64,000 nucleotides of DNA from Picochlorum sp. SENEW3. Lineage: Eukaryota. Of this stretch, positions 9,439-60,581 are shown in pieces. The stretch lies in contig CP120458.1 of NCBI GenBank assembly GCA_034226945.1, positions 558,001-622,000 on the forward strand. Direction: 5' to 3'. The notes under the pieces are model-generated. The model did no database searches. It was not told the DNA's origin and saw nothing but the letters and a program-made list of their open reading frames with translations. Each line of letters opens with the position of its first letter. Position 1 is the stretch's first letter. Both the position numbers and the translations under genes were made by a program.

Positions 9439-10014
9439 CTACAGAAGCAAGAATGCTATGATCGATGATGAAGAACGGGAAACCATGTCATGTAATGCCA
9501 TGCTCTGGATATTGTCAATCATCGTACTTCCCCCTGCATGTCCCCATATGCCTTCCTCTTCATTAAGGGTGGCACCGGCTGAGGCTCGCGCCTCGGATGT
9601 TTGTCCGTTCCCATAATTGATAGTATTATTGTTTCCGAATATAGAACCAATCTGTATGCCCCCTCCGGGAAGCGCCGGTGCCTCCATGGTCCTTTCCAAC
9701 TCCTTCATGAACAACTGGCAGCAGTTGTGGTGGGACTCGTTTAAAAATCCGCGTTCGGTCTCTATCCTCAGACGATTCAGCAACTCATTGCTAAGATCAC
9801 TTTGTATTGCAGATAAGCTTCTCCCAAGTTTGATCGATCCTATCAACCTGTCCATGAAAGACTCGTCTTCTCTGTATGTGAAAGACTCGTCCTCAAAGCT
9901 CATAGTGGCACCGTGATATCCCGTGTGCACTGCCGGATATGGTTGAACGGCAGAGTCGTCGTAGATATAATACGTTTTTAATATGTGCTTGAAAGATGCA
10001 ATCCAGGTATTCAC
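9439..10014 (-). CDS. hypothetical protein (probable ATG 9903)
   Basis: Protein-like composition; divergent from the CACTA transposase across ~320 bp. Confidence 0.45.
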   Translation of the reverse strand: MNTWIASFKHILKTYYIYDDSAVQPYPAVHTGYHGATMSFEDESFTYREDESFMDRLIGSIKLGRSLSAIQSDLSNELLNRLRIETERGFLNESHHNCCQLFMKELERTMEAPALPGGGIQIGSIFGNNNTINYGNGQTSEARASAGATLNEEEGIWGHAGGSTMIDNIQSMALHDMVSRSSSSIIAFLLL

Positions 10015-13618: not shown

Positions 13619-14261
13619 GATGCTATATGCCATTTAATCACTAAAGTAGTCATCTCCCCATGGTAGCACATTCCAGAATCGATTTCGGATGATGTTTCGC
13701 ACACCTCGACATGCGTGTCCAGGTCAACGCCACGCCGTGCCACTTTCGATCTGGTTCGACCGACACGAAATCTCTACATTTTCATAAATATAAATATTCA
13801 CTTTCTTTTAAAGAGATTGGCGCAAAAATGAGACCAAACGATCAACTATAGAGGGCGCACGGTGATTGCAAAGTTCGATTTCAGCCCACTTGCGAGTTTC
13901 TTCAACGTCGAAGCCACATACAGGTTCTAAGGCGCATGGAAATTGGCTCAAAAATGGGGTTCTCGGATCGCCGTCGGGTCAGTCGTCGGTGCTCTCGGGT
14001 GGGCCTGGGACCAAAACTCCTGACCTGCACAGTGCATCTTTTATTCCGCTGATTGCTCAGAAATACTTCTAATAATTCCAAATAACTATTTTTAAATTGG
14101 AGTAGCATTTGGTTACAGGTGTTGTGGTACGTGTGCAGACCGTTGTCAGCACCGAGCCCGGTTGATTGCGCTGGGCTGTACAGGGCGATATAGCACGCCA
14201 ACGACGCCATACAAACTAAAATAACTAATATTGAAAAATATATAGTACTTTTATGGCGTAA

Positions 14262-17200
14262 ATGGCACGTAGGAAGAAGAATACGCTGTGGTTGCGAAGT
14301 CGCATTCAACATCCTATCCGATATTGCCAGGTTGTGGCCGCAGAGGAAAAGAAATTGCGCAGAATACTCAGAGATAATCCAAATTATTCTGATAGTACAC
14401 GAGTAAGGAGTAGGGTTCGCAGAGCTCGCTGGTCGGTGACCAGGGAATATCCGGGTTTGGCCCCTTTTGTTTCTGAGCCCCAGGAGACCGAGGATCGTGG
14501 ACAGGATTCCGAAGAAGAGTACGAATCTGATGATTCATATGATGGTATTGTTTCCAGGAGGGATTTGGAGTCTGAGAGGAGTGTGCACGAGGAGAGAAAC
14601 AAGAGAGAGGAAGAGGCATGGGGCAAAGTGAGGAACAAGATAGTTGACCAGGCCAAATTACGCCACAGGGATCGATGGCACAGCCTACAAATCGCTATGC
14701 ACACTGAAAAAGAACGTATAAAAAGTAAGGTGGAGTCGGTATCGAAAACATGCCCGCGTTGCCGTGGCAGTGGTTCATTGTTGTCAGAGTTTGACAGGAG
14801 GAAAGTCACCATCCTCACCATGCAGTTTTGCCATGTTATCAGCATCCCTCTGATAGAATGCGCCCGGTGCGAAATGAAAAGTGAAAGAAAAACATAATGT
14901 GAGGCGATTCACGACGTATTGCGTCGCAGGTGCAACATGCATGGCCCAAGTGGCTGTGGCAGATTCCATGTGATTCCAGCAGACATTGATGCCTTTCCCT
15001 CAACTCCTGATTGGGTAAGTTCGACAACAATGCCACGTGCGTCCGCGGTGAAAAGACAAAATAAATATTATATTGGTTATGTGCAGCCTTTTGATCTTTT
15101 CCACGCACTCAGGGATGACAAGGTAGTCTTGTACCACATGGACTTGCTGACTTTCCTCAGGGATCAGATAGACTTCTCTCCAAGGCTGGCCGTGTCTTCA
15201 TTCGCCAAAGGTTTTAAGCGCACATTAATGAGGAATGGATGCCATGTCAAGATTAGTGCAGAACAGATGTCCAAGCACTTGAGCAGGGCTCTTCATGAGT
15301 ACACCATTTTTGAGATGACTGCCAATGATCCATACATGTACTCCTCCACCCATAGAGACTGTCCAATGGAGTGTCCCGCTTGTCTAGGATCTCAAAATCA
15401 TTTGATACATATATCCAAGACCAAAGTGGAGAAAGCTGGTGCAGATATGGCAACCTTTGAGCCAATTACCTCTGGGAGTCAAGTGCTGCTTCATTCAGTA
15501 TACATTGATGGGCACTATGGCTTGCCTCACATGGCGAAAGCAGGGAAATCTCGACAGTACGATCCTCCTTTTAGTATAAAACTCCTCCCTGACAACGAGG
15601 TGCAAGAGTTTGAAGAGCATTACACGTCGCAGTCAAGGGCTACTGCAGTGGCAACCTGTGGGTCTGAATTCCAGGCTGACTCGTTCCTGAAGAGAAGGTC
15701 CCAGTACCACGACCGTACAGGAGTTGTGGGCGCATTTTGTAGACATGGATCGTGTTTACTCATGCATGACAAAAGGTATGCTGAGGTTCCCCTGGTCCAA
15801 ATGTGGAGGCATAGCATGAAGACAGATTCAAATGTGTTGCAGGTGAGAAATGGTCCTACGCCTCCATGCTGCTGGAGCGCATCGCTCGGCAAATAGGGCT
15901 ACCAATAAATCTTTGGCATGATATAAACTGTAGATACAAGGGACATGCGGTGTCATGGGCGACAGCAAAGCAACAAGAGCTTGGCACAATGGTGTCCTCA
16001 TGGATCACCCAGGTGATGGCATACCCATTGCCCCCCATGCACTACCAGATGCACGACATTCCTTGTCAATTGAAGAACAGCTACCTGAGCGTAGAATTTG
16101 CCGGTGTTGGAGCGGGGGAGCCCACGGAAATTGCTTGGTCCCACTTCAGGAAAGCAGGGCATGTACTACAGTATCAGTCCCTGTTTGGCAGAGCTGTGGG
16201 CATAGAGAAATTGGTGCGCAACTGGAATCGCACCAAGCGCCAAGGGTGCATAAAAAATTGTTGTGGGATGCAAGTCAACGCGCTGAGGCTAAAATTCAGC
16301 TAGCAGAGCGGGAAGTCCAAGAGCTAATAGGGCTGCTCCAGGCCAGTGGGCTCAGCCAAGATGAGGTATGCTCTGGTGCTCTGATGCTCGTTGTTCATCG
16401 CAACCTGACCACTCAGTTCATGTAGGTGATACAAATGAGAGATAATCCTCCTGCAGGAGTAGATCGGTACCGTCCAGAACAGTCGTTTGAGGTCCAGTTT
16501 GCTGAAGCCAGGTTGAGGTACATCTATTTCAAACACTTTTGGGATTCAGTGAGAAGCCATCCCTTCTTCCGCGTGCTGCTCGGTCCAGATGTAGCAGAGA
16601 TAACGACGAAAAAAGTGTTTGGATATTGAAAATAGAAAAATGCGGAAAGCACTGCGGAGATTGCCCCAAGGATATGTCAACAATGCATATGAGTGTCGCA
16701 AGGGGGAGATGGGTTTGCTGGCATGGAGGCTACGATGCGAGCAAAATAGGGTGACGGCTCTTTTTCATCAGAAAGAAATACTTCGTTTACAAGAAAATAG
16801 AATGCTCACCCGCCGAGGCGAGGCCGCAAGGCTAAGGAAGAGGAAAAAGGTGTGCCTTGGTTGCTCCATGAGGTTCTTCATGTTTGAACTTGACCCATGT
16901 GTACCTTTCCCTGCAGGCTCTGGAGAGTCAACTGCGTAAAGTTGTTCGCCAGGTCATTGATATAAGCTCCCTTATATACAGTATACATTGCGAGAACTGC
17001 TTAGAGCCCCGTCAGGGTGGCCCAATTGCAAGCATAGTGTTCCCTGATTTTGCTTCCTACATGAGGGCAGTGTCTCCCCCTGAAACGAGGCAGGCATGGG
17101 AGGAAGCCGAGGTCATTTATCGCCTGGTTGGTCCATTTCAAGATGGAGAGCCATTGAATGCACAACGGTTTCATGCCGCGTTGGAGGAAGGCAGGTATCC

Positions 17201-17693
17201 TTGGATTTCAAACAGTTCTACCATGGTGGAAAGCTACAGGGTTCAACTGCATGCCAAGGCTAATCTCCTCTCGAGAGCAAGAGAGGAGAAACAACTTTTG
17301 CTCGAGGAGATAAAAGGATGTGAGTTGCTGCTTCATAGCGAAAAAGCCGCTGTCGATGCCGAGATTGCTGGGATTCAGGGGAGAATTGAGGAGCACCAAC
17401 TGCATCAGGATGCAAGAATACCAGAGGAGAACAGCCCATATGCTTACACGCTGGGTGTGGAGCTTCAAGAGCAACACAGTCAGGTTGAATCACTCTATTT
17501 TCACAAACTGCAGCTGGAAAAAGTGAAGGCGGAGGTTTCAACGCTTGCTACTAAAGCACGGCTGTGCGCAGATGTGTTCGTTAGGGGTGCCCGTCCCGAC
17601 CATTCCCAGATACTGGATGATACGCCAGCACAGGACGATGACCCGTTCGATAATGAAATAAATAATGAAGAAAATGAAGTTGTTGCCGAATAG
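14262..17693 (+). CDS. KDZ transposase, CxC1/CxC2-like cysteine cluster (Kyakuja-like); multi-exon with frameshifts
   Basis: Motifs CPRC..ECARC, CPAC..IDGH, TGVVGAFCRHG, GEKWSYA, WHDINC, HYQMHDIPCQ, GEPTEIAWSHF. GT..AG introns at 14867-14929 and others. Confidence 0.85.
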
Positions 17694-19282
17694 AAGGTGA
17701 AGGAAGCACGCGAGAAGTTTGGTCAATCGAGCCAATTGAGTTGCAATTCGTGGAATGTCTTCGATTCTCCAAACTCTACTCGCATTGGGTCTGCAATAGG
17801 TTCCAAATATGTTATAGTAATGTAACTGAGAATTATTTTGCAATGTGATGCAAAGGCGTCAATTTCCTTCGCCTAACGGTAAAGTCCGCATGTCCGCAAC
17901 ATGCGTCAAGTCTCCGAACTTGTCGATCTGAGACCATTTTGTATTTGGCTTTCGATTACACTCATAATTAGTAAAAACCCATAGTTTCTAAGCAACTGAC
18001 ATCCGCAATGGAGCAAGAGATCGCTAGGTCCCAAGAAGAGCTCGAACATGCCATTTCAAACACTGCCAAGTTCCTGGGCTTGTGCAGCGCACTCCTCGCC
18101 TGTTTTTCCAAACTAGACATGCGTTTAGCAAATAAATACTTGATTTAATGATTGATTTAGGTTGTGCAGAGCGAGAGTAGCATGCGCGGCCCAAAAAGGA
18201 ATTCCCCCAAAATGTCGTTGGAGCCGAGCTTCTCTAGTTCGGGCGGATTCGGTGCTATATACCAATCAAATCATTTCAAATACTTCAGTGTGTATTAGTA
18301 TACCACAGAATAGGCACGGGGAATACTGGTCGTGACTGCAGCGCTCGTAGTCCTCCGCCCCGAGCAACGCCCCTGTTGCGCTCGTTTGCTGCTTGTCTGA
18401 GGCATGGGAGACTCGCAAACTCGTTCCATATCCCTTTAAAAACATTGCTAAGCCTAAAGAAGCGGGTGGGAGGGCGTTTGCAATGACCGCCCCCAGGGCC
18501 GGAACGAGTTTTGGCACCAAAAAAGCCTGCCTAAACGCTTGTGCACTTGGGTCACTCGGAATTTCGGTCACGCTATTTCGACCCGTTCGCCGATTCATAC
18601 CACTAAATAGCATATAAGTAATGTATAGAGCTTCTTGAATCGGCGAAGTATGCGCGGGAACGCCTTGTGGAGGGGAAAAGAGCCCCAGCTGGCCAGCTCC
18701 AACTGCAGGTTCCCAAGACGCTCCATCCAACTCTCCGAGCAATGTCGGGTCACAGCGCTCGCGAACCTCGCATCAAATCCCGAATTTAGATTTATTTTTG
18801 AATAAAGATCATTTGAAGACGAGTACTCTTGAATTCAGTTCCTTGTATGCGTGCCAAAAAGACGACAACATGTCGCAAAACAGGCATGGAGATCCCCCAC
18901 CTGACGAGAACTGCCTCTGCTGGCGCACATATTGGTGCGCAACAATTGCGATGACATCTTTTAGTATTATGAATCTAAATTCTTGCGCCCTCAATACCAG
19001 GACAAGGCACACGCCCCGTCACTGACACGTTCTCCGATGTTGGAAATGTGCGTTCAAGTTCTGAAATTACCGTGGAGAAGATCTAACCGCGCATTCCCGC
19101 ATCAATGAAATATAAATTTAATTTAGATTAAATTGAGCATTCGCTATGGAGCAGGTCATGGCCAAAACTCGCACATTTCTCGCCTTCTCATCACCTTGCC
19201 CAACTGCCCCAAGTCGTTCTGGCTCATGAGATGCGTTCCTCCCATCCTTTAGGAGAGCGAAGGCCATTCCCGCACCCTGATT

Positions 19283-20899
19283 CTATTTTTTGCGTTTTTT
19301 GGGCCTACCACGCCTCTTTGTGAGGCTACCACGTGGCCTTCCTCGCCCCCTGGGTGCAACCTGCTCTGCAGTGGCAAGTGATGGCTCAGCCTCTTCAAGC
19401 TGGTCAGGATCCCCGCCGCGCGGATTGAGGGCAGTAACTTGCTCTACACTTCCATCAATTATGATGTTCTCCTCCGGGCCAGATGGTAGCGCTCTCTCGA
19501 TAGATGGTGGGGCAAGCTGTCCAGCATGGATGTTACCTGCAGCAGGATGCTGTTCAGCACTCACAGCTGCCATTTCTTGGGTTGCAACCGCATTGATATC
19601 CAGCGACCCCTCTACAAAATCATTTAATACTTCGTTCTGTTCGGGATGCAATCCCAGCGCGAGCTCCATGGGGGCCGTACCTCCATCAGCTGTTGCTGGG
19701 AGAACCACATCTGCACCCAGGGGGTTGCCACTTCCTCTGCCGTCTTGTTGCGGCGCACGCCGGTCCGAAGGCGCACTAAATAAATTATTCCTATCATCGA
19801 AATAAGCCTCAAACGTTCTTCGTATATGGTGCGGGTCAGGGCCATGTCTTCCCATGTCCTCTGCTACCTGAGTCATGATGCCTGCCCCCTCCTCTTCCTC
19901 TTGTTCAATTCCCTTGGTTTCGTACCACAACTCTTTGTCAACGCGACGAAAATGCTCTATTAATATGTTTATTTGCGCCTTGGATAAGGCAGAATAGCAA
20001 ATGAAGGGAACTTGCTCTGGCCATGATGCATGTTGCCTTGCCAATGTGCACCTTTCACACCCACCATTGCATTCCGATTGTCTAATGTGCAACTTAGTGG
20101 CGCTAGTAACGGCAACATGAATATCTGTAGAGGAAAGAACTGCAGCAAGAAGACGAATGCTTTGTGAGAGACTCATCTCATCTCATCTCAGCCAGGCCAC
20201 AATGGGCTAGCAGTCTAGGGCAGCCCTCAACCCTGTTTGGCCTTTATTCCGTATCTGCAAGCTGCTATCAAGATAGTATAAATTCACATACCTCTATTAG
20301 TCTCCGTTGCAGCCTCTTTCATTGCCCTCTTAGCGTGCTCTCTCAGCTTATGGACCTTGATGTCAATCAGAGCCTTCAGAGTTTCCTCATCATCCTTTAC
20401 CCCTTGATCCACCATGACAAACCGTTCCTGATGAATGTTACATTGCAAATCGCAATGATATCGGTGGAGAGACTCGCAACTCGCTCGGCATACTCCTTTC
20501 TCAAACCTGCACAGGAGCTAGCAGGTCACCCACAACATGAACACCTTGGTGTGGGCTTGTGCTACCCACAGGCCTCGATCGTGGCCACCACTACACGTGC
20601 ATACAACCATACATACCATTTTGATACAAAGAGCTGCGAATTACCGTGGATTTGTGGTCCGGCCAGGTCAAAACACCCAAAAAGTCAGGGATGCTCACCA
20701 GGCCCCTTTCATCTTTGCTGAACAGCCGCTTGTGCTCACGAGACATCTCGTGTAAGCCTTTGCAGATCAATTTCGATATCTCTCTCTCCCATTTCTTCAT
20801 TACAGCCTCCATTTTCCGCGTGCGGCGCTGGAAGTCGCGACGAACATCGGGGTCTTCCAAATGCCCCGGCATATGCGCTACACGATACTCCAGATTCAT
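19283..20899 (-). CDS. multi-exon hypothetical protein with C-terminal AT-hooks; probable KDZ companion gene
   Basis: GTATGT donors near 20616 and 20291; final exon ends PRGRGRPRG..KRRGRPKKRKK; convergent with the KDZ transposase; the middle exon needs a frameshift. Confidence 0.5.
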
Positions 20900-21220
20900 G
20901 AGGCTGCAAATATATCAGTTATTAACTGACTTTAGTAGTATGAAACGGTCGAAGAGCGTTTTATTGCACGCAGTGAAACTCGAGAACGCGTGTAACAATG
21001 GGCTCCTGGGAGGCCGGTTCTGCGCCGCTCCTTGGCCTCTCGTGCACTTTCGAGCGTTTTGTTGCGATATTTTAAATATTTTAAAGCCATTTCTGCTGCG
21101 ATTGCGGGCCGCACAAACGAAAGCCACGCGAGTGTCACTCGATGAGGTGACCCGACGGATGCCTGGTCGGCCCACCGGCGGGTATGGTTTTTAGCCTAGT
21201 TTCCCATGCGCGTGACCTCA

Positions 21221-21432
21221 CATACAGAGAAGAGGCCTTGTTTAAGACCCCCTGAAATTCAGTGGTTTCCCATCAAATGGTCGGGGGACCGGGTAGGGTC
21301 GGGTAGGGGGCAAGGGGATTAGGGTATTAGGGTTAGAAAACATGTAGATTTTGGACCATGTTTGGCCGGTCGGGTATTTTAAGCGACCGCTGATTGAGCT
21401 CGGGGTCTTAAACAAGACCTCTTCCATACCTC
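21221..21432 (+). mobile_element. 212-bp non-autonomous element, CATACAGAGAAG family (copy A)
   Basis: Near-identical to 44120-44331 and 45859-46070 (which are inverted relative to it). 23-bp sub-terminal inverted repeat. Flanks do not match in this copy. Confidence 0.85.
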
Positions 21433-21620
21433 ATTCAACCACACCGTCAGCCCTACGACCCCAGCGACGCGTGCATTAACACTCCCTCGTGTTTAGGAGG
21501 CAACAAATCATGTTTAGGCACTTTATATCGCTGAACAATAAATAAATAAACAGTTTTCCGCTCCCGGTCTTAATTAAGCCCGCCTCTTCCTCGGGGCCTT
21601 AACTAGTCCCGAGGTCTCCT

Positions 21621-22503: not shown

Positions 22504-22539
22504 AGGAGCCCCAATAAGGCCACTTCTCTGTATGGTTTT

Positions 22540-28900: not shown

Positions 28901-29161
28901 TATTCGGCTGGGGGAACTGCGCTTCTCATACAACATCTACACGCAGATCATTTTGAGAGCCACAAATGGCAAGATAGAGCTGTCACATTATTTGGATCAG
29001 GACTTGGATTTATTGACCGAAGTGAATGATGGGTGTAAGCTCATTAAGCTTTATATCAAGCTCGAACTTGATTGCACCATAAGAGCTGCACAAGTTTCTG
29101 GTCCAGGCAGTCTATTGGTTTCTCAGACCACTTCGGATGCGTTCACCGTATTGATGAACAA

Positions 29162-30079
29162 TCAAAGAGTAGAATGTGCTTTACGGAGACCTTGGATTGG
29201 ACGTGGCCATGGTGTGTTGTCCTGTGGTGATGCCATGGCTAGACCCAGCAGTTTGGACAAGTTCACCTTGGATATGTGCTTGTCTGGGTTATATGACCGA
29301 TGTAGTGGATTTTGAGAGGACTTATAGGTGTGTGGAACGACCACGGATCGAGGGAATTGGCGTATGGAGTCTAACAGCACAGAGTGGAGCTCATCAGTCA
29401 CGGGAATGTGGGCTCCACCCTTCCTGTGTGACACCTTGTCGTGCTGGATCAGAATGACAGCCTTGTCTGGCGTGAGCACAAGATGATTTTCTTCTGGAGA
29501 TACTTTCTCAACGCTATCAATGATGGAAAGCGCCGCCCAATCTGCTCGGAGCGGTGGCTGCATGGTGTACAAGCACATGGCAAACCATTGCCAGTAGTCA
29601 GTAGTGTTTGCTGGGTCGCTATCGATCCTGCGTTTGATTGCATCCCTACGAAAGCAGATCTCTTGGAATGTTTTGAAGTCTTTGCCTTGGATGTTGTGGG
29701 CTGTTTCTTGAGTGGCTTGGATGCGTAACTCGTTGGCTTCCTGTCTCCACTTATCTGTGGTGGGGTGATGCAGTCCAAGCTCCTTTCTCAGGACGGAAAC
29801 CACGGGGAGCATCATGGACGACAAGACAGATATATTGGTATACGTTTGTTTCATGTAGCGGTATACTTCTTCAATGTTGGGTATGAGCCACAAGGAGTAC
29901 TGTTGGACCTTGGCAGCATCAATCTTTGACCGTTTCTTGAGGCCATGCATGACTCTATAGAGCGTTTCCAATTTGGTTCTGTACGATCGCACATCCCAAG
30001 GATTGTCGACATAAAGTTGTGTTGTTCTCATACATGGAGGAAGAGATAAAAATTTTGGAAATTTTACGCACTGGATCAC
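29162..30079 (-). pseudogene. tyrosine recombinase (PLV/NCLDV-like), C-terminally truncated
   Basis: LYTMQPPLRADW (catalytic Arg I), IQHDKVSHRKG (Lys), IQGLRKAHST (H-x-x-R box variant). Stop occurs before the expected H/W..Y motif. Confidence 0.65.
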
Positions 30080-30234
30080 TCAATGGACGGTACATGTTTG
30101 GCCGAGGCTTCCTTGGTTGCAGTTGGGAGCAACCATTGTATTTGTCAAAGTAACGTTGGAGAGGCCACTAACGTTACTATGTCGACCTTGAGCGATGACC
30201 ATCACTTATCCAGTGAAATGGGAAACTGCTTACC

Positions 30235-35303: not shown

Positions 35304-35393
35304 ACCATCGTGCGAGAGCGACTCCTATCCATTTGCCAACATATCATCACGGCTCGTGTACAATAAAATAATGGTTTTTTGGTTCAATCTCCA

Positions 35394-42381: not shown

Positions 42382-42396
42382 GTCAATCTGTGTTGT

Positions 42397-44047: not shown

Positions 44048-44119
44048 CTGTAAAACAAAATGAAAGCAATTCATACACACATAGTGTTTGAATTTGGGTG
44101 TACATGATATTGAGCGGAG

Positions 44120-44331
44120 GAGGTATGGAAGAGGTCTTGTTTAAGACCCCGAGCTCAATCAGCGGTCGCTTAAAATACCCGACCGGCCAAACAAGGTCCA
44201 AAATCTACATGTTTTCTAACCCTAATACCCTAATCCCCTTGCCCCCTACCCAACCCTACCCGGTCCCTGGACCATTTGATGGGAAACCACTAAATTTCAG
44301 GGGGTCTTAAATAAGGCCTCTTCTCTGTATG
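44120..44331 (-). mobile_element. 212-bp CATACAGAGAAG-family element (copy B)
   Basis: 8-bp TSD GAGCGGAG at 44112-44119 and 44332-44339. Confidence 0.92.
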
Positions 44332-44391
44332 GAGCGGAGTGGATAAGCCAAGGGTTAGTGCGCTGGTCCCATACAGAGAAGAACCTCGCTG

Positions 44392-46285
44392 GTGGGCCTC
44401 ACTTTCTTCCTCACGGCTATATTTCCAACGATTACGCGGCCCGTGGTTTTCAAAGAAACGCAACAATCATTGATTGTACCCATCAAAGAATGTTATGAAC
44501 ATGATGGCCCATCATATGCTTCTAAAAGCCTGATGAGATTAGCTGACTCTCTCTTTCCCGAAAACAAGAGGAATGCCTTTGAAGAGCATCGAGCGTATTT
44601 TTTATATATTCTGTCTACCTCGAAAAAGTGCAATGAAGTGCAGTGGAGAGGTGTTTCGCAGCAATATATCCACAGAGTCGAGGGAAATCGTCTTTATCCA
44701 TTTGAAATGGTAATGGGATATGGAAGTACCGTTGTGAGAGAACATTCTCCACCACGCGTAAGCTGTGTGAATATACCTGAGCTGAAAGGAGTTGTAAGTT
44801 TTTCTAATGTTATGACATCCATACAAAAAAATAGCCTTAGGCTGCATTTGTTTTCAAATCGAGGATTTCGTGCTTTTGATTATGATAGATCTGGTTTTAA
44901 ATATAGGGGGGAAGGGTATTACGGTCGTGCAGGAATTAAATGGGATGCCCGGAGGCTTCTTTATTCTTTGAATGATGACGTGATGCTGAGAAACCTTGTT
45001 TTGAGTGGAAGCCCCTATCGACCTTTCCTAGATATACATCATGGTAATGAAACAATCCAAATGGGCTTGTCAGAATGGAAGAGGGCTGGGGGCGAAAATC
45101 TAGGATCAGTATTTTATGAGGGCGAAGATATCGTCGCATTTATTCGATTTAATGTACCATATAATCCATTGTCATGGAACGGGCATGGGTATAGAAGTCT
45201 AGGAATTTATCATCTCGAGGTCCTGAATAATACCGTATCTGCAATACCTGTCCGGTGGGTCGCAAGAGATGATTGTGTTTCTGATTGCATCAAACTAAAT
45301 GAAATCTACGGCTGCCTGTCAACTGATCTTCAAAATTGGAATGGTTCTTTCACTCCAGGCCTTCAAAATATCGAAATTCCATCTAGGATCGAATCTGCAA
45401 AAGTTTTTGACTTCATGACAAACCCCACCAACAATGCATGCATCAGGTCAATTAATCTTGGAATAAAATGTGCACATAGATGTCGAATGGGGAATCAAGT
45501 TTATCAGGCTAACGTGTCGAGACTGAGATCGGTCATGTTTGCAGTAGTACCACTGCGAAACAATGTGTTCTATGGGTGTATTTACCTGAATAAAACGATG
45601 GATGGTGATTGTTTCTCTACACCCCTCGTAGAAGAAGTTGGGAGGAAGGGACACCCTATGTCCTCTCCGATCATAGACTTCGAGAATCACTATCACTTAT
45701 TTGTTGTGAACAAGAATAGTTCCTGTCCATTGGAGCATGTGAGATGGGAGAGTGAGACATTTAGCCGCTTTGAAACAAAAGAGAGGGAATCTCAAGGCAC
45801 CCTGGTGTTAGAGAAAGTTCGCTTTCCATTTTTGACTCACTTGAGCATAGGTTTCACCGAGGTATGGAAGAGGTCTTGTTTAAGACCCCGAGCTCAATCA
45901 GCGGTCGCTTAAAATACCCGACCGGCCAAACATGGTCCAAAATCTTCATGTTTTCTAACCCTAATACCCTAATCCCCTTGCCCCCTACCCGACCCTACCC
46001 GGTCCCCCGACCATTTGATGGGAAACCACTGAATTTCAGGGGGTCTTAAACAAGGCCTCTTCTCTGTATGGTTTCACCACAAACCTGCTGCACATGGTCG
46101 TGTGTCCTAATGTATCAGTCACCCTGTTAGTGTCTGGATCTACTATCATGGCTGATTTGAAATGTCAGCGGGAGAATGTAAATGCATTGCGAGTAAATGC
46201 ATCCTTTGGGGAACCACGGGAAGACTTTCATGGTAAATTAATTATACGCTTCCCCTCTGCTGCACAGTTAACATATATAGAGTAG
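44392..46285 (+). pseudogene. intronless ORFan interrupted by a 212-bp element
   Basis: Removing 45859-46078 fuses ...LSIGFT in frame to TNLLHMVVCP...LTYIE* (ORF 46094-46285). Start codon uncertain. Confidence 0.7.
45859..46070 (-). mobile_element. 212-bp CATACAGAGAAG-family element (copy C)
   Basis: 8-bp TSD GTTTCACC at 45851-45858 and 46071-46078. Confidence 0.92.
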
Positions 46286-50880: not shown

Positions 50881-50889
50881 ACTAGTAAT

Positions 50890-51400
50890 ATGCCCCATGC
50901 ATCCGAGGTGATGGCAGTGGTGGATGACAGGGAGGACCCGAAGGAGAAACGCGGCCTGAGGCTGTTGGCGCGCAATCGCGTGGATTGCAAGACGCCGGTG
51001 ATCATCTGGGACATCAGCCCCTGCATTTTGTGCTGCTCTATCCCTGGGGCACCCCTGGGTGGCACACCGGCATGGGGTTGTCCCCTCTGCAATATGGGGC
51101 GTTCTGGCTCCATGACAGGGCTGGCGCTCATGCAGACTTCACCAAAGGAGGTCGATTGTTCCAGGAATGGGTACTGGATACATGTGTCAAGGTGGAGAGG
51201 CAGAGATTGAACTATCTGAAGACGGACGACTTTCGTCGGAAGATGCGCAGGAGTGCTCTGGGGCCTCTGAGGCAGGCCATCAGGCACGGCAGGCGCAAGG
51301 GCTCCCAGGCAGGGACCGGGGCTGCCGAGGTGCCCGCGTCGCACATCAGGTCGCGAGCGTATTTCAGAAAAAAGAGGTACGATTCGTACGCACTGGCCGA
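50890..51400 (+). pseudogene. fragment of a canonical Helitron Rep N-terminal region (different family)
   Basis: LHFVLLYPWGTPGWH..GGRLFQEWVLDTCVKVERQRLNYL..VPASHIRSRAYF..YDSYAL matches the Helitron_like_N pattern; visibly more GC-rich than its neighbours. Confidence 0.75.
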
Positions 51401-51616
51401 GAACCCTGCTTGTATAAAAATAAGAAAAGTTAGGGGGCTTATATATATGTATGTGTGTATCATATGCTCTTGCTATTGCACGGAGCATACATACAATTTG
51501 AAAAATCTCAAATTTGAGCGGCGGTAAAATGGACTTCATTGCATAGCAAGAGTACAGTCGCCTCGGGGCATTTCCTGTGAGTGAATGCGACTTGGTTCGG
51601 TCTGTAATGGATCTAA

Positions 51617-52876
51617 TTGGACGTGGTGGATCCCGTTGTAATTTATAAGTATAATAAAAGAATACTAAGGACGAAACATGCCTCTTCTCTGTATGGAGTT
51701 TCAAATGGGCTCCTCCCGGAGGGCGAGATTTCTTCAGCAAATTGCAGCGGATATGACAGTGACATCGCCGAAAACAATGCAAATTTATCAGAAAAATCCA
51801 AAGCGTCGAACAAGCCGCGCGGACCGGTTGGCAAACTTTTCAAAAAGCGCTTCGAGGAGCCAGCCCAAAGGTACCCATTGCTGGAAAAGGGGGAATTGAG
51901 CTCCAGAGTAAAGGTCGATGACCAGGTGCATGGTCTTATCATGTCTCTCTACGTGGATTACACCCACTGGTGTCGGGAAGCCTTCAATGCACGGGATGAA
52001 TGTGCAGTTTTGGGCACCAAGGTGGGTGAGCTGGAGGGGACAGTGAGTGAGTTGCAAGGCAAGTTGAGCAACATGAGGGAGCTAGTCGACAAGGTTGTTC
52101 AAGACTCTGCTCCATTCTTGAGAGACTTTACCAACATGGTGAGTAAGTGCCAAGACGCGCAATCGCAGATAGCAGGGTACATGAACATACTGAGAGAGTA
52201 TGGTGGGCATGGGGAGTTGGAAGCTGCAAGCGAAGGGGCAGACCCTGCCCTCAACCCTCCAGCAAGGGAGCCCCTTCCATCCCAAGCCATCGAAAGGGAT
52301 TCAGAATCAATGTACAACAGCCTTTCGATCGAAGGAACGCCAAGCGGCTTCGAAAGAGCACTAGATGGCGAACAGAGAGTGTTTGAGCATGTGATCCATG
52401 TATACTCTGTACAGACAGGGGGGCAACATCTCTTGGATAAGCACAAGCGGCGGATTTCTCCTGGATATTACGTTTTGCAGCATGAATTGAGTGAATTATT
52501 ACAGAGCACGGTGAATAAGAAGATTTCTAACTTTGGGAATTTCACAAAGACATCCCAGTGCAAATTTTCTGTGAGCAAAGCCGTCCTGATCTCCAAACTG
52601 CTCCCAGAGGTGATACAAACGCTTCGAAGCAAAGGCATTGTATCTGACGAAGGCCGTCCAGATCAGGAATACAGCTTTGTGCCCATGGTTGATGCGAGCA
52701 TGGTGGTGGAGGCATTTCGAGAGAAGCACTGTACAGGCAAGAGTACCAGGGAGAGGCTGGACCGTCTCCTGCACCTCTTCCGCGATCTCACGAGAGCGGG
52801 GCAAGCAAACCAGATTGAATATCCACGTGGGCATTATGTTGTCGAGAAAGCGGGCTCTTGCTCCTCGGGGGCATGA
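51617..52876 (+). CDS. hypothetical coiled-coil protein; convergent companion of the KDZ transposase (5' end uncertain)
   Basis: Long ORF ending 60 bp from the KDZ stop; its 5' part runs into a CATACAGAGAAG terminus at 51684-51695. Confidence 0.6.
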   Translation: MDVVDPVVIYKYNKRILRTKHASSLYGVSNGLLPEGEISSANCSGYDSDIAENNANLSEKSKASNKPRGPVGKLFKKRFEEPAQRYPLLEKGELSSRVKVDDQVHGLIMSLYVDYTHWCREAFNARDECAVLGTKVGELEGTVSELQGKLSNMRELVDKVVQDSAPFLRDFTNMVSKCQDAQSQIAGYMNILREYGGHGELEAASEGADPALNPPAREPLPSQAIERDSESMYNSLSIEGTPSGFERALDGEQRVFEHVIHVYSVQTGGQHLLDKHKRRISPGYYVLQHELSELLQSTVNKKISNFGNFTKTSQCKFSVSKAVLISKLLPEVIQTLRSKGIVSDEGRPDQEYSFVPMVDASMVVEAFREKHCTGKSTRERLDRLLHLFRDLTRAGQANQIEYPRGHYVVEKAGSCSSGA

Positions 52877-52935
52877 GAGAGCAGGCCAGCATGGCAACCC
52901 CCCATGAGCTCATGCACTGGGCAGCATCCTTGCCC

Positions 52936-55324
52936 TCAGGAATGGAGCCCGTTCCGTCTCCGCCTCCTCTCCTCCTCTGCATTCAGCTTTTCTAGTTTTC
53001 GAAAGTTCCCATAGCACATGAACGACTTGAGGAGCGTCATGAACGACTTCTGAGACATCCTGGACATCATGGACTTGAGGTTCTTCAGGGCTGCATTGTT
53101 CTGCTCAGCTATTTGGGTGTTGATGAGCTTGAGCCACGAGTCTTCGTGCGCTTTGATGCTATATCCAAGGCTGCACGCCTTATGGTTGACCCAATGGAAC
53201 GCATCCACGAAGAATTTGGTGTGCATGAAGAACAGGGGAGCTCTGCTCAAGCAATAGTCCTGCAAATTGCATGCATTGTCGTAGATCACGTACTCTGGAG
53301 CCTTTTCAATATGACATGTCATGAATGTAAACGGTTCGTTCCTCCCCTCTGCTTCTTTGATGATGAACGAGGCATATACAAACCCATGCTCACACAGGAT
53401 GGTGAACACCCCTCCTGTTCTGTCACCTGGCTTGTAGAAAGCATGATCGCACTTATCCGACCCCTCTTTCTTCTCATCCTCTCTACTTTTGTCGGCCGTG
53501 TAGTGTGGTTTTCGCCGAAGGCGAGGAAGGCCAGTCAGTATGCCCGTTTGCAGGTATGACCCATCCAGTACAGGCACCTGGTTCTCCTGGTCCTCCTCCA
53601 CACCACTCCCAAGCTCCCTCTCCAGGCTATACCCGCTAGGAAATGTAGTGACATCCTTTATTCTCGTAAATAATTCTGTCAGCAGGGGTTTCCACTCGGG
53701 GGGAACTCGGACGTGCCCCTGTGAGTGGCTCACTGTCTGTAGCAATTTGCACAGGTATGGGGAGTGTTTCATCAGGTCCTGCATCACCCCACTCGAGATC
53801 CGCGAGCCATCCTCTACCCATTCTTTTATATGGGATATATTCTTCATCGAGATATACGACACCACCGGGGATTCGCTCGCGAGGCAGCGAACGAAGTCTG
53901 CCAGGGCCAACCGTTTCGGTTGAGTGGACCATGCTCTTGCATTGGTGTGTGCCCACTTCAGGAATGAGTCCAAGCTCCATGCCCTACCCAATTCAAGTAA
54001 CCTAGATCTCTTGGTAAACATTGGGGACTCTGCTGAAGGCTCTCCGAGCCTTCGGATCCACTTTTGGAACTGATCCAGCAATCTCACCAGCTCTGCCCTG
54101 TGTTGTTTTGTCCTCACTCCTGCCACCACATTCACGAACGCCCTCTGTCTCTTTCCCCACCTTTTGGGGACCTCGTTTCCAGTATCATCTGATTTGATGA
54201 TGCTTTGAGCGAAGCATCCCTTGGACCGGATGCTCATGGACGTCCCATCCATGATGAGCACCCTGGGGGAGCATGCAGCATGGGCACATCATGGGGTTAT
54301 CAAGGGCCCGCTCTTCGTGTCCAGTCCTCCATACCATCTTCCAGGATATTCTCTTTCCGAATTGTATCGCAGCGTTTCGAAACTTGGTGGCATCCATGAA
54401 TGGCTGAACAGATTCATCCAGTCTGGGGCACCCGTCACTGTCAAACACAAAACTCCCATGGTACTTCCTGCGCGGCTCATCGCACTGACTCTCCAACGAC
54501 TGCGCACCCAACAGCAGGGCAGAGTTATAGGCATCATACATCATCTGCAGCTCCACCACCATCGTGGAAGACACCCTCCAGAGACCATCATGCACCCCAG
54601 TGTAGGGAACAGTGCATTCAGGCTTCCTATTTGGGCACACCCATCGATACATGGGCCTTTCGTGGATGCAATCATATCTTGAAGTATTCAAAAATACTCG
54701 AACAGATTGATAGTCGAGTTGAAGGCCCGTGACCTCATCGTACTCCTGCTGGCAATGGCAGAGGTTCCTGGGCTTTGGTGGCCTCAGACCTGTGAGGGCA
54801 GAAAAATGCTTGCCACCTGGCTTGGGATGCGTCCACGCCGCGAGTCCGGCGTGATGAATCCTTTGTATAGACTCCCTAATATCTTCACCGAGCGGCGTGG
54901 TAATCTGCGCCTCCTCAGGGTGAGTTTCCAGGTACCAGTCCAATGTGCCTGGAGGTGGGGATGGAACAAGGTCAGGCTCTGTCATGCCCTGGTTCTCCAA
55001 GAGCGCGACAGCGCTCTCTTGGTCCACTCCGTTCATCATACGCACATGTCTACATCTGCGACAGTCTCGACACAGGCTGCATCGCCAGCCTACTGTGTCT
55101 AGCTTGACAAAGGCATTGTCATGGTAGTACCCCACACATTCTTTGTTCTTCAACTGAATTTGAATCACATCGCACGCTCTCCCAAACCTACACTTTTTGA
55201 AGGTCTCTAGGTGCTTGGAAATATATTGCACATGCAGACAGTCATGAGAGCCCCCAATTCCCCCCACGTTGGGGCTCTGGGGCGGGGAGCCAGAAACCTC
55301 TCCTGGGCCATCCATGTCACTCAT
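52936..55324 (-). CDS. KDZ transposase with SWIM-like and CxC4-like clusters (Dileera-like, tentative); one frameshift near 54265
   Basis: CSLC..CRRCRH, CTVPYTGVHDGLW, CPCC..IMDGT, RTGGVFTILCEHG, AEGRNEPF, VIYDNAC, VDAFHWVNHKAC, NTQIAEQNNA. Confidence 0.88.
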
Positions 55325-55903
55325 ACTGGCGACAAATATGTAAGATATTAATTTGTAGTGCTATAAACACGCTCGAAGGAACTGCAAAGCCCAGCAAGTA
55401 GGTCGAGAGGTCCACTCGAGTCGGCGCAATCAAACAAGTCGCCGCACTGTACACCGCACGGATCACTCCGACGATTTTTTTCTTGAAATAACTGTATTAT
55501 GATAAAGATATGTGCAAAGCGGCACGAATTCTAGTGCTGTCTGCAGTGAGATTATTTCGCCAGCGGCATGCACTAGTTCGGCCTGGAAAACCCCCGATTT
55601 CTTAATTTCTATATAGTGGCCTTATATCGAAGAGCTATATGCCTCGGAGGTGGAACACATCAGAAGCGCTGCCTTTGTTGTACAGAGACATATCACCCTT
55701 GTCTAACGGCTGGATTTGCATCCTTGATCCTTGGTGAGCCCCAGGTGGTCAGTTTAATATTCCTGATTTGAACCTGATTTTGACACTTCGCTCAGAAAGC
55801 GGCAGTATGCTGTATCTTGCTGGAGAGCAAGCCGGCTTCCCAACTCTGATTGTCTTGGAGGGAGCCATGATATGTGGCCGATAATCATGACACACATTCA
55901 GGT

Positions 55904-56398: not shown

Positions 56399-58461
56399 TT
56401 GAAATCATTCTACAAATATACAATCAGTAACAGTACTAGATTGCAAAGGCCTAAAAGCTCTTCCAGCAAAATCAAGGGCTGAGGCAGCAATACAAAGCCT
56501 GTTTACGGAAATCTTCTAAACTCAAAAGTGATGGATGATCTCCACAGTATGATTGACAGGGAGGCTGACCCTGACTGGAAAATCAAAGGAGACTAGAGCA
56601 AGGCAATGCACAAGGATGTTGTAGCAGGGGCGAGGTGTTCCCTGTTCAAAAGTGTCGTCATCGTGGGAGTACTCGTTGCAACACGACAAGTAAGCGTCCC
56701 AAACATAGATATCGTGCGGGGCGCATATAATGACACTAATTGGTCAGATATTCTTACATTATAAGAAATAGTAGTAGTTATATTTGAAGTCCTCCAGCCT
56801 GGAACTGGTATGTATACATTTCATGAACACTGCCACATCATGGAATGTAGAAAACTTTTCCAGGGGTGCACAATAACAGTACAGCCCTCGTTATATTACA
56901 TTCCTCCCCGCTACGTTTGGATCAACTGTAGTTCGTTACGTGTGGATGGAAGGAAAAAAGACCATTGCAGGTGCTGAGGTATTTTTTTTTGGTTCAACTC
57001 AGCAAGCAAGGGGTGGATCTCCCCTTGAAAAAATTCCCACACCAATTCATACAGATTGCATTGCAAATAATAAGAACAGGTGTTTGTTTGGCACCTCGAC
57101 TACTGAATTACTCTACATGGCAGTAACTATACTCTCGTTCTACCCTTCTGACCACCATCAAAATCCTCGATTCCTCAACTCTCCTCCAAAACCGCATCCT
57201 AAGCATTCTTATTATACATTGAACCATAACTTATTTAATAGAAAAGAACAGATCAAAGAAAATCCACCAATCGAGAAGAAAACTCGCGGATCATCATCGA
57301 TGCATGCATTCATTCCTTCCAAGTCTTATTTGCTCCTACTTCCTTTATGGCCTTTTCAATCCCTGAATAGTGAACTAAACTAATATTAAGGGCTATATTC
57401 ATCGGCGCCGAGTCGAATGGATCTCACCAACCGAATGGTCGTCGTTTCCGATCGCGTCGCGACGGTTGGGACGAAGACGCCCAGAATCGTTCCTTTGTGG
57501 GCACGAAGGAGCATCATTCTTGCTTTAAAATTATATATCAGTCGAAAGAACCGACGACTGACCACCACGGAGCACAATAGGGTTCCAACAACAACCGTTC
57601 CACGGGAATAATGTCATGACAACACTCCCAACGGTGCCAGCAGGCCACGACCTCCTTCTCCCAGGTTTTCCATCCTTCAGTATCTTATATTTATATATCT
57701 TTCAAGGAGACTCCTGGGCTCCCTCCAATCAAACTCACTCACAGAGGTGGCTTTGCCCAGAGGTTGTTGCGAATTTTGTTGTGAACATTGGTGGTGAATG
57801 CGACGCGAAATACTCCTGATGCTGGTGAGCGGAGAAGCTCTTTACTAGCATCTCATCAATTCCATATGTATGAGATGCCTAAAGTCGTCAGGCCACGGGT
57901 AAAAGCTCTCAACCTTGGAGTCTGAGGCAGCTGCTTGTGCTTGATTCCTGGCCCATTGCAAAAACATGCGGTGGCCAAGGTGGGTCCTCGCCATGTAAAT
58001 GCGCCATCTGGCTCCTTGCATGGTTTCTGTGGATATATATAAGACATAGTAGCACCACAGACGCGACGATAGAGTGCTCACGTGCCCACAATCGTATCCC
58101 AAGCGTTGGGAAGTGACTCCCAGACACACCCCTCCCTAGATGACCGGTCACGCAAAATCTGGGAAATCTGAGAAAGATCTTTTTGAATTACATCCATATG
58201 AGGTCCTGAAAGTGAAAGAACAGAGAAAAAGCCCTCACGCGACCAGAAAAGTGACCTCAAGCCAAAAGGTTAGAGTTCTGAACACCCCTTAACACCCAAA
58301 GCAGAACAGTCAACCATACAGGCTCACACTCACCTCCAGAGACCTGTCCATCAGCCTCTGCTCTGATACCCTCCATACCATTTTCGAAATAGAATTTATA
58401 CATCAATTTTAAATGGATCAGTAGGTGTCGGAGCCAAACTTGTGAGACATGCCTCCATATG

Positions 58462-60078
58462 TTAGGTTCCAAATTTGGATTTGACCTTCTCAATGTTCCC
58501 CAGCGAAGAATGAACGTACATTTTGTCTCCAAATTCACCATGATCTCTGAGATATACGTAATCAAATGTTTGCAAAGTCGCTTGTAAAGCTTTAGATGGT
58601 CGTTCAACTGTTATTACCAGGAATTTAAACTCCTCCAGAACTACAGGTTGCAAAATCATATCTTCTGCACCTTCGACGTCAAATGAAAAGTAATCGATCA
58701 CTTTTGGGGCCCTAGCTCGTTGGAGAATTTCCAATAGCGAACTGGCTTGTCTAACAATCTTTGTACCATTTGCTGTCTTTCTATTGTCTGTATGCTCAGA
58801 CACAATGCCCCCAAAAGCACCGTCTCTGCCTTCTGGGTGCTCAATAAACTCAACAATGTCCCCTGTCTTCTCCGATACAATCGCATAATAAATATCACAT
58901 TTTCTGTGAGCGAGTCCCCAAGTGTATTCAAAATTCGCTTCAATGCAAATGCCTGTCCAATCAAAGTGATCTTCAAGTGCCTTGGAATTACTTAGACTGG
59001 CAGCATCGTTTGAAGCGAGGTCTAGAAAGAATCTCCCATTACAATCACCATGAAGTAGTTCAAAGATACCACAAACAGTTTTATCCTGGCCCACTTGACT
59101 GTACCAATCTTGGGTTACACCATACGTTGAATTTCCAATGTACACAGAAATTGTTTTCCATGAACTTCTGTCTTTCTTCACTGAAGTGAGAACCCTGGGA
59201 AACAAATAATTTGAAATATCATCATCTTCTTCAGTGGCGCTTGACAACCTCCAATATGCATCTGTTTCTCGAAGACCGGATGTTTGGTTATGAAACGTTT
59301 GACATTGGCTTACAGCATCCGACCCCGATACACTCCCTAATTGACGTATTGCATATCCCACGGATGTCATATATTGAATCCAATGGAGACAAAAGTCATT
59401 TTCAACACCCTCGTAGGTATTCGTATTCTCCAGATAGACTTCTGTGAGTAAGCGTTTAACGCCTCTTGATACTAAAGCCTTTCCAGCAGAACTGACCACC
59501 TTAAAGTCAAAACCCTGCATGTCTGTCTTGATGAATGCTATTTCTATATCGAGAGGAATGGAGTCCAATACATCCTGAAAGGAAAGGATGGGTACAATCT
59601 TCTCCATACCATCGCGTTTTGGGACATTATTCCAATGCTGAGTGGAAGCCGGCTTAGCCAGAGATGAAGAGACCCCACCTTCATTATAGACACGCATTGT
59701 CTGTAGCCCCGATGCATCACTCACAGCAGCAGGAATAACAGTTAGTTGTGGATGAGGATGAATAATATCGCTCACGATTGGCTCAAATGCTAATGCGTGT
59801 GTCGAAAAATCTCCCTTTCGCGGCACAATGGGATCAACATTGGACCCAATATTGATAATCACTTTCTTGGTACCATGTGGCAGTGATATCTTCAATCCTG
59901 TTTCCCCAACTCGCTCTCCCATCATGCTGGGAATCATGGCCATCAATGGAATTAATGGTAAGGAGAACAGTGCGATCCACAATCCTCCGATGAAAACTAC
60001 GAATCCTGTTCCTTTTCTCAGTTTTGGAACCCAGGGACGGTCAGCAAGCTTCATCATCCAGATCCCCAACCAAAACAA
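58462..60078 (-). CDS. membrane-anchored tandem FkbM-family (Methyltransf_21-like) SAM methyltransferase, intronless
   Basis: N-terminal TM. Domain 1: INIGSN..AFEP..PAAVS..FIKTDMQGFD. Domain 2: FLDLASND..SNS..WTGICIEAN..IDYFSFDVEGAE. Confidence 0.85.
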   Translation of the reverse strand: MFWLGIWMMKLADRPWVPKLRKGTGFVVFIGGLWIALFSLPLIPLMAMIPSMMGERVGETGLKISLPHGTKKVIINIGSNVDPIVPRKGDFSTHALAFEPIVSDIIHPHPQLTVIPAAVSDASGLQTMRVYNEGGVSSSLAKPASTQHWNNVPKRDGMEKIVPILSFQDVLDSIPLDIEIAFIKTDMQGFDFKVVSSAGKALVSRGVKRLLTEVYLENTNTYEGVENDFCLHWIQYMTSVGYAIRQLGSVSGSDAVSQCQTFHNQTSGLRETDAYWRLSSATEEDDDISNYLFPRVLTSVKKDRSSWKTISVYIGNSTYGVTQDWYSQVGQDKTVCGIFELLHGDCNGRFFLDLASNDAASLSNSKALEDHFDWTGICIEANFEYTWGLAHRKCDIYYAIVSEKTGDIVEFIEHPEGRDGAFGGIVSEHTDNRKTANGTKIVRQASSLLEILQRARAPKVIDYFSFDVEGAEDMILQPVVLEEFKFLVITVERPSKALQATLQTFDYVYLRDHGEFGDKMYVHSSLGNIEKVKSKFGT

Positions 60079-60529
60079 AAAAAGAGTCTGGCGATTTTCG
60101 GAAACTACAACTACTGTACTAATCCTAATTATCTGCGAATCAAAAATAAATTCAATCGTCGAAAAACGCGCAGAAGTTGAGATTTTGTCCGAAGTCTCAG
60201 ACCCAAGATTTAAGGAAGGATTTACAGCTCTTGGTAGGACAATCTAAATACTGTCATAGGTTTCCAGGTTGATTTGATGGTCTCGGGGCCCCACGTGGGG
60301 CTTCCATACAGAGAAGTGGCCTAGAATAAGGCCCTCAGCTCGTGGGGGGCCAGAACAAGACCCGGAAGAGAAACACGTGTTTTTTAATTCTTTTGGCACA
60401 ATATTAGTTGTATTTAAATGTGAAATGATGTGTTGTCACGGGCTAACGATCACACGTTGGTGTTGGCGCACGTGTGGCGGTAGCTACCGCTAAATATTTA
60501 GGGATTTCCTCCTGGGGGCCTGATTGTCT

Positions 60530-60581
60530 CATACAGAGAAGAGGCCTTGTTTAAGCTTAAACAAGACCTCTTCCATACCTC
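60530..60581 (+). mobile_element. 52-bp minimal CATACAGAGAAG-family element (copy D)
   Basis: Both termini are retained and the interior is collapsed to a palindrome centred on TTAAGCTTAA. TSD GATTGTCT/CATTGTCT (7/8). Empty homologous site at ~43973-44047. Confidence 0.85.

Follow-up and report, generated by a model that had tools for sequence, protein, structure and literature searches.

A stretch of 64,000 nucleotides from the alga Picochlorum sp. SENEW3 (contig CP120458.1 of assembly GCA_034226945.1, positions 558,001 to 622,000 of the forward strand; G000:C6:558001-622000 in our numbering, hereafter the window, to which positions without a contig refer) carries copies of a transposon family with unlike tips and sub-terminal inverted repeats. 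The family is real and goes beyond an ordinary family of miniature inverted-repeat transposable elements (MITEs): its long members, found elsewhere in the 14 contigs (13.85 Mb) of the assembly, carry a predicted tyrosine recombinase (YR) and in some cases a polymerase-helicase. Two lines of evidence conflict, the scars of insertion pointing to the KDZ transposons, and gene content together with selection pointing to the recombinase. On balance we lean towards a carrier with KDZ-type ends, which would be inserted in trans by a KDZ transposase while a replication and recombination module captured from a virus would act on its circular form.

An earlier note, made from the letters of the window, had described a MITE-like, non-autonomous family of four copies, and all four are present:

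44120..44331 (-): 212-bp non-autonomous copy with a perfect 8-bp target-site duplication (TSD), GAGCGGAG, at 44112-44119 / 44332-44339
45859..46070 (-): 212-bp non-autonomous copy with a perfect 8-bp TSD, GTTTCACC, at 45851-45858 / 46071-46078
21221..21432 (+): 212-bp copy without TSD, within a remnant of a long family member; another element (KDZ1, below) is inserted at its left tip
60530..60581 (+): 52-bp copy, TSD GATTGTCT/CATTGTCT (7/8); the odd base is the first base of the left tip

As that note had it, the left tip CATACAGAGAAG and the right tip CTTCCATACCTC occur in all four, and an inverted repeat lies inside the tips. It begins at position 9 of either end and extends over 23 bp with one C/T mismatch. 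The 8-nt tips themselves, CATACAGA and CATACCTC, stay unpaired in the DNA fold of the element and are not complementary; true terminal inverted repeats (TIRs), a feature of hAT MITEs, are thus absent. The 52-bp copy is composed of exactly the first 26 nt of the left end and the last 26 nt of the right end. It may, as the note suggested, mark the minimal cis requirement; being a single example, it could also have arisen by deletion in place.

Genome-wide, exact 12-mers of the ends number 33 (left) and 23 (right), against 2 and 7 for reversed-pattern controls in the same 13.85 Mb; given these counts and the 11 full 212-bp copies, the ends are not a product of chance. The 212-bp copies (nine on C6, two on C4) are 92-100% identical, and since four are identical to one another and another two are identical to each other, movement must have been recent. 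Paired members of the family total 14: the 11 copies of 212 bp, the 52-bp copy and two long copies, C3:554407-560399 and C2:1158976-1168832 (5,993 and 9,857 bp).

All 14 left-right pairs were scored for TSDs. Perfect 8-bp duplications flank five, the long copy on C3 among them, and imperfect ones (7-8 bp plus tip-derived bases) flank a further five. The two perfect window copies and the one at 7/8 reported in the earlier note are thereby borne out, whereas genome-wide only 5 of 14 pairs are perfect. In length (7-8 bp) and variable sequence the duplications agree with those of KDZ transposons, the 8-mers being unrelated among copies. Empty paralogous sites were sought for the 12 short copies, and were obtained for both flanks of four, for one flank of three and for none of the remaining five. 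A single 8-mer is present at the empty sites of C6:722429 (8/8) and C6:766829 (7/8); the empty site of C6:622711 ends in G, so the C beside its left tip was acquired; that of the 52-bp copy has diverged so far that only an initial G can be read. Because one copy of the 8-mer is carried at the empty sites of three insertions, the 8-bp duplications are real, which supports the claim of a MITE-like family.

Each of the five imperfect duplications deviates by bases of the opposite tip: in four cases C, C, CTC and CCTC stand in front of the left tip, and in the fifth a C stands behind the right tip. CCTC closes the right tip and C opens the left one, and the match holds in four subfamilies with unlike flanks. 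C immediately precedes 20 of 24 left ends (binomial P ~1e-9) and CTC precedes six (P ~3e-6; 0.002 given the C), these 24 being one mismatched tip and 23 of the 33 exact ones; the 21221 copy and nine solo tips without an arm were excluded from this tally, and five of these ten are preceded by C. A target preference for C also contributes, since four of the five perfect TSDs end in C. From the opposite-tip bases we infer an end-joined circular intermediate: the ends would pass through an abutted right-to-left junction, most simply a circle, whose opening nick may slip by 1-4 nt. In 4 of 24 public runs, covered as contigs only, the left tip of the C3 element meets different flanks in two; this boundary is therefore mobile. 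No clean empty site of the same element was found in those contigs.

The two paired long copies are:

C3:554407-560399: 5,993 bp, perfect 8-bp TSD
C2:1158976-1168832: 9,857 bp, no TSD

Long members share an order: small unknown open reading frames (ORFs), sometimes a polymerase-helicase of TVpol-D5/superfamily 3 (SF3) type, iteron-like repeats, the tyrosine recombinase, an AT palindrome, a variable passenger gene and the right tip. The 231-aa ORF at the left gave no match in Pfam, PHROGs or Atlas. Where database relatives of proteins from these elements have a named source, the label is Picochlorum. The earlier note had tied the family to a KDZ transposase; both paired long copies encode a tyrosine recombinase instead, and neither a KDZ enzyme. 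The ORF concerned (~400 aa, in both copies) had no match in Pfam or PHROGs, and Pfam named none of its 30 profile matches either. A structural model built from a 17-sequence alignment (predicted local distance difference test, pLDDT, 61.7; the single-sequence fold was poor, with pLDDT 41, and only the alignment model was searched) matches Cre (Foldseek E 2e-4). In a wide structure search XerA, a staphylococcal integrase and Cre scored Z 9.8, 9.1 and 8.9, with root-mean-square deviations of 14.4, 5.2 and 6.9 over 234, 186 and 265 residues. The nearest viral models are giant-virus proteins, including an annotated integrase (E 3e-7). The catalytic set of YR transposons, R-K-(H)-R-H-Y, is present and the fold matches Cre/Xer/Int: R178, K215, R299, H325 and Y334 are kept in nine of ten sequences, the window copy being truncated before the last two. 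The long copies are accordingly predicted, on the strength of this model, to encode a Cre-fold tyrosine recombinase.

Across all 45 pairs of recombinase sequences dN/dS (Nei-Gojobori) is 0.12-0.31 at dS from 0.12 to 1.77, and is ~0.2 even between close copies (dS 0.14-0.18), values which indicate purifying selection on the gene. The genome contains ten recombinase loci, intact frames among them. At six a long family end lies 1.3-5.2 kb away in the correct orientation (both ends at two, left only at two, right only at two); four have no long family end, and two more distant matches are the ends of short copies. The window locus is

29135..30217 (-): truncated recombinase, 89-90% identical to the C3 copy, with the catalytic His and Tyr missing and one stop

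A profile search returned 551 relatives. Eight close loci lie in metagenomes, of which L098 alone shows a left-tip-like end (38 nt upstream of codon 146 of the recombinase), the rest being short contigs without ends. Among viral contigs no relative of the recombinase or the polymerase was confirmed; an 18-nt left-end pattern had four matches there, all in one 38%-GC phage-like context without a sub-terminal arm, and these were set aside as chance. At C6:227748-245670 the left-part ORFs of one long copy and its recombinase and right end stand ~12 kb apart, with ordinary host genes between.

The C2 copy, and in part C6:737245, encodes a divergently oriented protein with family-A-polymerase-like motifs, D5_N and an SF3 helicase, which we take to be TVpol, the motifs having been judged from an alignment. 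It has an in-frame stop in C2 and is truncated in C6, while relatives of ~830 aa, 87-88% identical, are complete. Most of the Atlas clusters nearest to it belong to Preplasmiviricota (score 0.99). Between polymerase-helicase and recombinase of C2, TGTTCCAC occurs seven times in 931 bp, and these short repeats look iteron-like. A metagenomic locus (L094:1-1000) has the same AGTTACTT repeats beside a relative of the recombinase, with a divergently placed primase in place of the polymerase-helicase; from its motifs this is presumably of the archaeo-eukaryotic (AEP-like) type.

Downstream of the recombinase the shared sequence stops after ~530 bp, at the AT palindrome. All four perfect genome matches of AAATTTANNNNTAAATTT are at that position, and the corresponding place in distant metagenomic copies is taken by a perfect palindrome of 26 bp. 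Eight of nine post-recombinase segments reach the palindrome or a decayed form of it, and six of the nine then continue into a long ORF on the strand opposite the recombinase. All six are dissimilar: a proline-rich secreted protein (with a 48%-identical counterpart at L096), a PAN-domain protein, Methyltransf_11, Methyltransf_24, the FkbM gene of the window and one unknown. In three of the six the right tip lies beyond the passenger gene, which is therefore inside the element. A protelomerase reading of the palindrome is a weak idea, TelA ranking 21 in Foldseek and being absent from the first 50 matches of the wide search; a signal that ends transcripts from both directions where convergent genes meet would fit equally well. 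The corresponding unit of the window spans 58293-60243:

58293..58410 (+): conserved post-recombinase segment that closes with a degenerate copy of the AT palindrome (58391-58410)
58462..60243 (-): FkbM-type methyltransferase (Pfam Methyltransf_21) at the passenger position
60305..60483 (+): left end of a long member of the family (180 bp), with CTTC immediately before it

The unit is followed at 60301 by CTTC-CATAC-AGAGAAG (60301-60316), possibly a fusion of right and left ends through their shared CATAC; the 4-nt match is weak.

KDZ elements of this genome serve as comparison (each is another family):

13924..21219 (+): KDZ1, ends GTTCTAAG+GCGCATGGAAA ... TTTCCCATGCGC+GTGACCTC, 8-bp TSD ACATACAG
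51399..55360 (-): KDZ2a, partial, right tip GGGTTCTC
C4:1121659-1128071, C5:280404-286816, C6:40690-47092: KDZ2c, 6.4 kb, inverted repeat of only 3-4 bp, frames up to 1,092 aa

Both KDZ genes of the window match PF18758. In KDZ1 (7.3 kb, with a 96% copy at C4:977523-984830) the tips are asymmetric and 8 nt long, the sub-terminal repeat measures 11-12 bp, and both copies have 8-bp TSDs, the window copy having inserted at the left tip of the 21221 copy with a TSD of its own. KDZ2a ends in CACAGGCC...GGGTTCTC and shows a 7/8 TSD with C beside the left tip in its one complete copy, a base change also seen in the family under study. KDZ2c ends in CATTAGC...GAATCTC and has an 8-bp TSD in all three complete copies, all beginning with A, so that 7 bp plus A is an alternative reading. 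A TSD of ~8 bp and a right tip ending in CTC are thus found in all three KDZ families with resolved ends (KDZ1, KDZ2a and KDZ2c; not KDZ2b), and KDZ1 has in addition the 8-nt offset before the sub-terminal repeat that marks the family under study, with ACCTC common to both. At its ends the family works like a KDZ element; its membership is not established, since no cognate transposase was found. The KDZ affinity proposed earlier therefore stands as regards the shared end grammar, and does not as regards the two window genes.

Three further observations concern these elements. The flank of the C4 copy of KDZ1 is a nested palindrome joined to the right tip of the studied family, resembling hairpin-derived P-nucleotides. 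At C6:64582-64600 and C6:65214 the left tips of KDZ2c and KDZ2a are preceded by (nearly) their own right tips, inverted, which suggests that end-to-end attack occurs in KDZ families too. At C6:73311-73470 there is a decayed right half of a 212-bp-like copy with a KDZ2c insertion inside.

Taken as a mechanism, the reading towards which we lean would run as follows. The element would leave as a circle joined end to end, its right tip abutting its left tip; the junction would be re-opened, and the element inserted, by a DDE transposase of KDZ type that acts in trans (not found in the assembly), a nick slip of 1-4 nt duplicating bases of one tip onto the other end. The recombinase and polymerase-helicase would be a module from a polinton-like virus (PLV) or virophage, kept by selection for replicating or resolving the circle; passengers may be exchanged at the palindrome, and short copies would need the ends only. 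Insertion by a DDE enzyme is favoured because staggered duplications are what DDE chemistry produces and YR elements are said not to leave them, and KDZ chemistry in particular because the 8-bp duplications, the CTC tip and the 8-nt offset are the scars of the local KDZ families.

A number of observations weigh against this reading. Four of the 14 pairs have no TSD (the 21221 copy, C6:645888, C4:1159262 and the 9.9-kb C2 copy); the first lacks it because the 7.3-kb KDZ1 inserted at its left tip, and the 8-mer of the second recurs next to an inverted left end 300 bp away. No right-to-left joint or circle was seen in the contigs of the 4 of 24 public runs, a form of data that drops rare forms. 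None of 14 KDZ loci has a left family end on one side and a right one on the other within at most 10 kb each way (four had less than 10 kb of flank on one side, and the assembly may be incomplete), and a genome-wide search gave no KDZ gene with these ends, despite four identical copies that call for a recently active enzyme. The two window transposases, to which the earlier note had pointed, both lie within elements with other ends and drop out. The sub-terminal repeat sequence of the family is found in no end-resolved KDZ family, and the likeness in the CTC tip rests on three families. The recombinase, moreover, stays under purifying selection at dS above 1, as a mobilising enzyme does. The earlier note had held that a non-KDZ enzyme in the long copies, or TSDs departing from 8 bp, would speak against KDZ; a different enzyme is indeed what the long copies encode, and with 5 of 14 TSDs perfect the assignment is partly undercut.

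It is possible, if less probable, that the tyrosine recombinase itself mobilises the family: it would bind the sub-terminal arms, circularise the element and cut the target across an 8-bp overlap, full homology being dispensable, with gap filling producing the duplication. The KDZ likeness of the ends would then be coincidence or relic, and the element a capsid-less, virus-derived YR transposon with MITEs and TSDs. The recombinase is the sole enzyme common to long members with these ends, intact frames of it exist, and it has been under purifying selection while linked to the same left end (C3 vs C6:741093, dS 1.18); the metagenomic locus L098 likewise has its left-tip-like end close to it. 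Arms around the 8-nt CATAC core would make a loxP-like site, of which 60301-60316 reads like a fusion, although the chance that CTTC precedes one of some 25 left ends, as it does at 60305, is about 1 in 10 (an estimate). C is favoured at both TSD edges, as if microhomology between tip and target mattered. However, from standard YR exchange one would expect a single coupling sequence or a target motif in common, as in Cryptons and Starships, rather than fixed tips at both ends with an unrelated 8-mer on either side, PLVs bearing a YR seldom have TSDs, and the CTC tip and 8-bp TSD shared with the local KDZ families would have to be chance. Slightly less probable again is the fuller form of this idea, in which a giant-virus-type recombinase alone circularises the replicon, inserts it near-randomly with an 8-bp duplication and mobilises units as short as 52 bp, while its own polymerase-helicase replicates it and host surface and methyltransferase genes are swapped at the palindrome in the manner of integron cassettes.

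The module could also be a passive passenger of ordinary KDZ MITEs and Pack-type carriers, its selection signal stemming from life as a virus or plasmid and the odd bases from repair or donor flanks. KDZ-like end grammar, the stop and truncation in the C2 and C6 polymerase-helicases and the heavily nested, rearranged state of the region would suit such a history, which we nonetheless consider improbable: the recombinase ratio stays low even between close copies, the extra bases equal the opposite tip whatever the flank, and the boundary of palindrome and passenger is conserved in a distant metagenomic relative. Most unlikely of all is an enzyme of another DDE superfamily (hAT, MULE, CACTA/Plavaka) or a Helitron. 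MULE-like, CACTA/Plavaka-like and Helitron genes abound nearby and hAT likewise makes 8-bp TSDs, but the tips are not inverted repeats, CMCT elements make TSDs of 2-5 bp, and neither paired long copy contains such a gene. A Helitron partner was discarded: what follows the tip at 22534 is a Helitron 5' fragment in its own right, which elsewhere has different neighbours.

Among known systems, the prokaryotic insertion sequences IS3, IS30 and IS256, which have symmetric ends, move by copy-out/paste-in through abutted ends; the present family would work likewise if its abutted-end junction is real, no membership being claimed. The original description of Zisupton reportedly includes sub-terminal inverted repeats and circular forms. 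Zisupton and Dileera make 8-bp TSDs, and Kyakuja 7-bp ones with CA..TG and no TIR (PMC12730594); KDZ elements are likewise given 8-bp TSDs, with KDZx1 lacking a TIR (10.1101/2024.08.15.608186); and giant transposon families can bear accessory genes, some of them (KDZ, EnSpm, Sola) encoding no transposase at all and depending on movement in trans (PMC12477816). The studied family resembles these in its 8-bp TSD, in that TIRs can be missing, and in the non-transposase passengers and trans movement of giant families, and its left tip starts with CA like 9 of the 14 published 5' ends shown (PMC12730594). It differs in that its ends enclose no KDZ gene, and carry a recombinase and a polymerase-helicase under selection; nor was the carry-over of junction bases from tip to tip found described in the accessible KDZ literature.

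In PLVs and virophages a tyrosine recombinase and a primase-helicase form an 'end module' (PMC11296320), and in YR-bearing PLVs TSDs number 10/232 in one cluster (PMC12220804, PMC8547959, PMC10120064, PMC11296320). Long copies share the YR and primase-helicase replication module, with a replication gene that is exchangeable (L094), and differ in their size of 6-10 kb, 8-bp TSDs and MITE-like derivatives. Long terminal inverted repeats of PLV type are absent, only the sub-terminal repeat of 18-23 bp being present, and inside the two paired copies there is neither room nor match for a capsid and a packaging ATPase. Searches of the genome with PF04665 and PF21738 were empty, the control being weak in that PF21738 matched no control either. 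Closer in construction are Tec1/Tec2 of Euplotes and MarCry-1_FO of Fusarium, composites of YR and DDE enzymes whose YR is thought to resolve intermediates (PMC3212892): they have DDE-type ends and a TSD with a YR on board, as here, but encode their own DDE enzyme and have TIRs, whereas the YR of the studied family is viral-type and is accompanied by a polymerase-helicase and a slot for passengers. Cryptons and Starships insert by recombination at a target that matches them and leave no true TSD (PMC9977147, PMC10104507, PMC13465315); a YR gene, a short direct repeat at both ends (CATAC in the present case) and, in Starships, cargo are held in common, whereas here unrelated 8-mers are duplicated that are single at empty sites, and no Pfam family matched the YR. 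The accessible main text of the Picochlorum genome paper (PMC11092101) makes no mention of the recombinase or Zisupton, and that of PMC9297572 and PMC6431247 holds nothing on ends of this kind. Our literature search, with Repbase and Dfam outside it, found no KDZ-ended element with a YR and polymerase-helicase.

Further traces of the family are present in the window. Six exact left tips (5180, 9878, 22534, 44370, 51695 and 60305) were absent from the earlier note, and solo left tips of 12-22 nt number about ten in the genome; that at 51695 is preceded by CTC, as at other left ends. Apart from the end at 60305, and together with a frame between two short copies, these features are:

5180..5191 (+): solo left tip bordering a 44-bp hairpin arm on its inner side, the arms (5139-5280) surrounding 54 nt that begin with the tip
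9867..9878 (-): solo left tip with a 13-nt duplication, one copy on either side
21428..21605 (-): remnant of the left interior of a long member
22513..22534 (-): left tip of ~22 nt joined to a Helitron 5' fragment
44370..44381 (+): solo left tip
51681..51695 (-): solo left tip, 13 nt (TC + tip) standing where the KDZ2a paralogue has 32 nt
44359-45912: open frame of 517 aa that matches nothing in Pfam and lies between two of the 212-bp copies; a solo left tip marks its start, and the copy 45859..46070 interrupts its 3' end

Other elements lie nearby. A MULE/SWIM-like element (39171-43961) has 168-bp TIRs, each with an internal hairpin, and near-identical copies at C6:704026 and C6:799918. CACTA (Transposase_21) and Plavaka-like genes occupy 10176-13466 and 35367-38820, the latter repeated several times on C4 and C6 at 94-97% identity. 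Helitron pieces (PIF1 helicase; Rep) are found at 30217-32766 and 46682-51527, with a fuller relative at C4:1128247-1134330, and 26549-28901 and 61398-63947 form an inverted pair (93-98%) of an unidentified repeat with short repeats inside.

No account of the KDZ reaction pathway was found in the accessible literature, and the carry-over from tip to tip predicts a joined-end circle testable by polymerase chain reaction; the novelty of the circle falls if the original Zisupton paper reports circles. Should the recombinase alone suffice, the rule that YR elements make no TSD fails, and ends of 26 bp constitute a very small delivery unit. The long copies tie a transposon to the replication and recombination module of polinton-like viruses, with no capsid gene in the paired copies, and may represent an intermediate between virus and transposon; the passenger slot – with a different methyltransferase or secreted-protein gene in each copy – is a route of gene movement in a compact algal genome.

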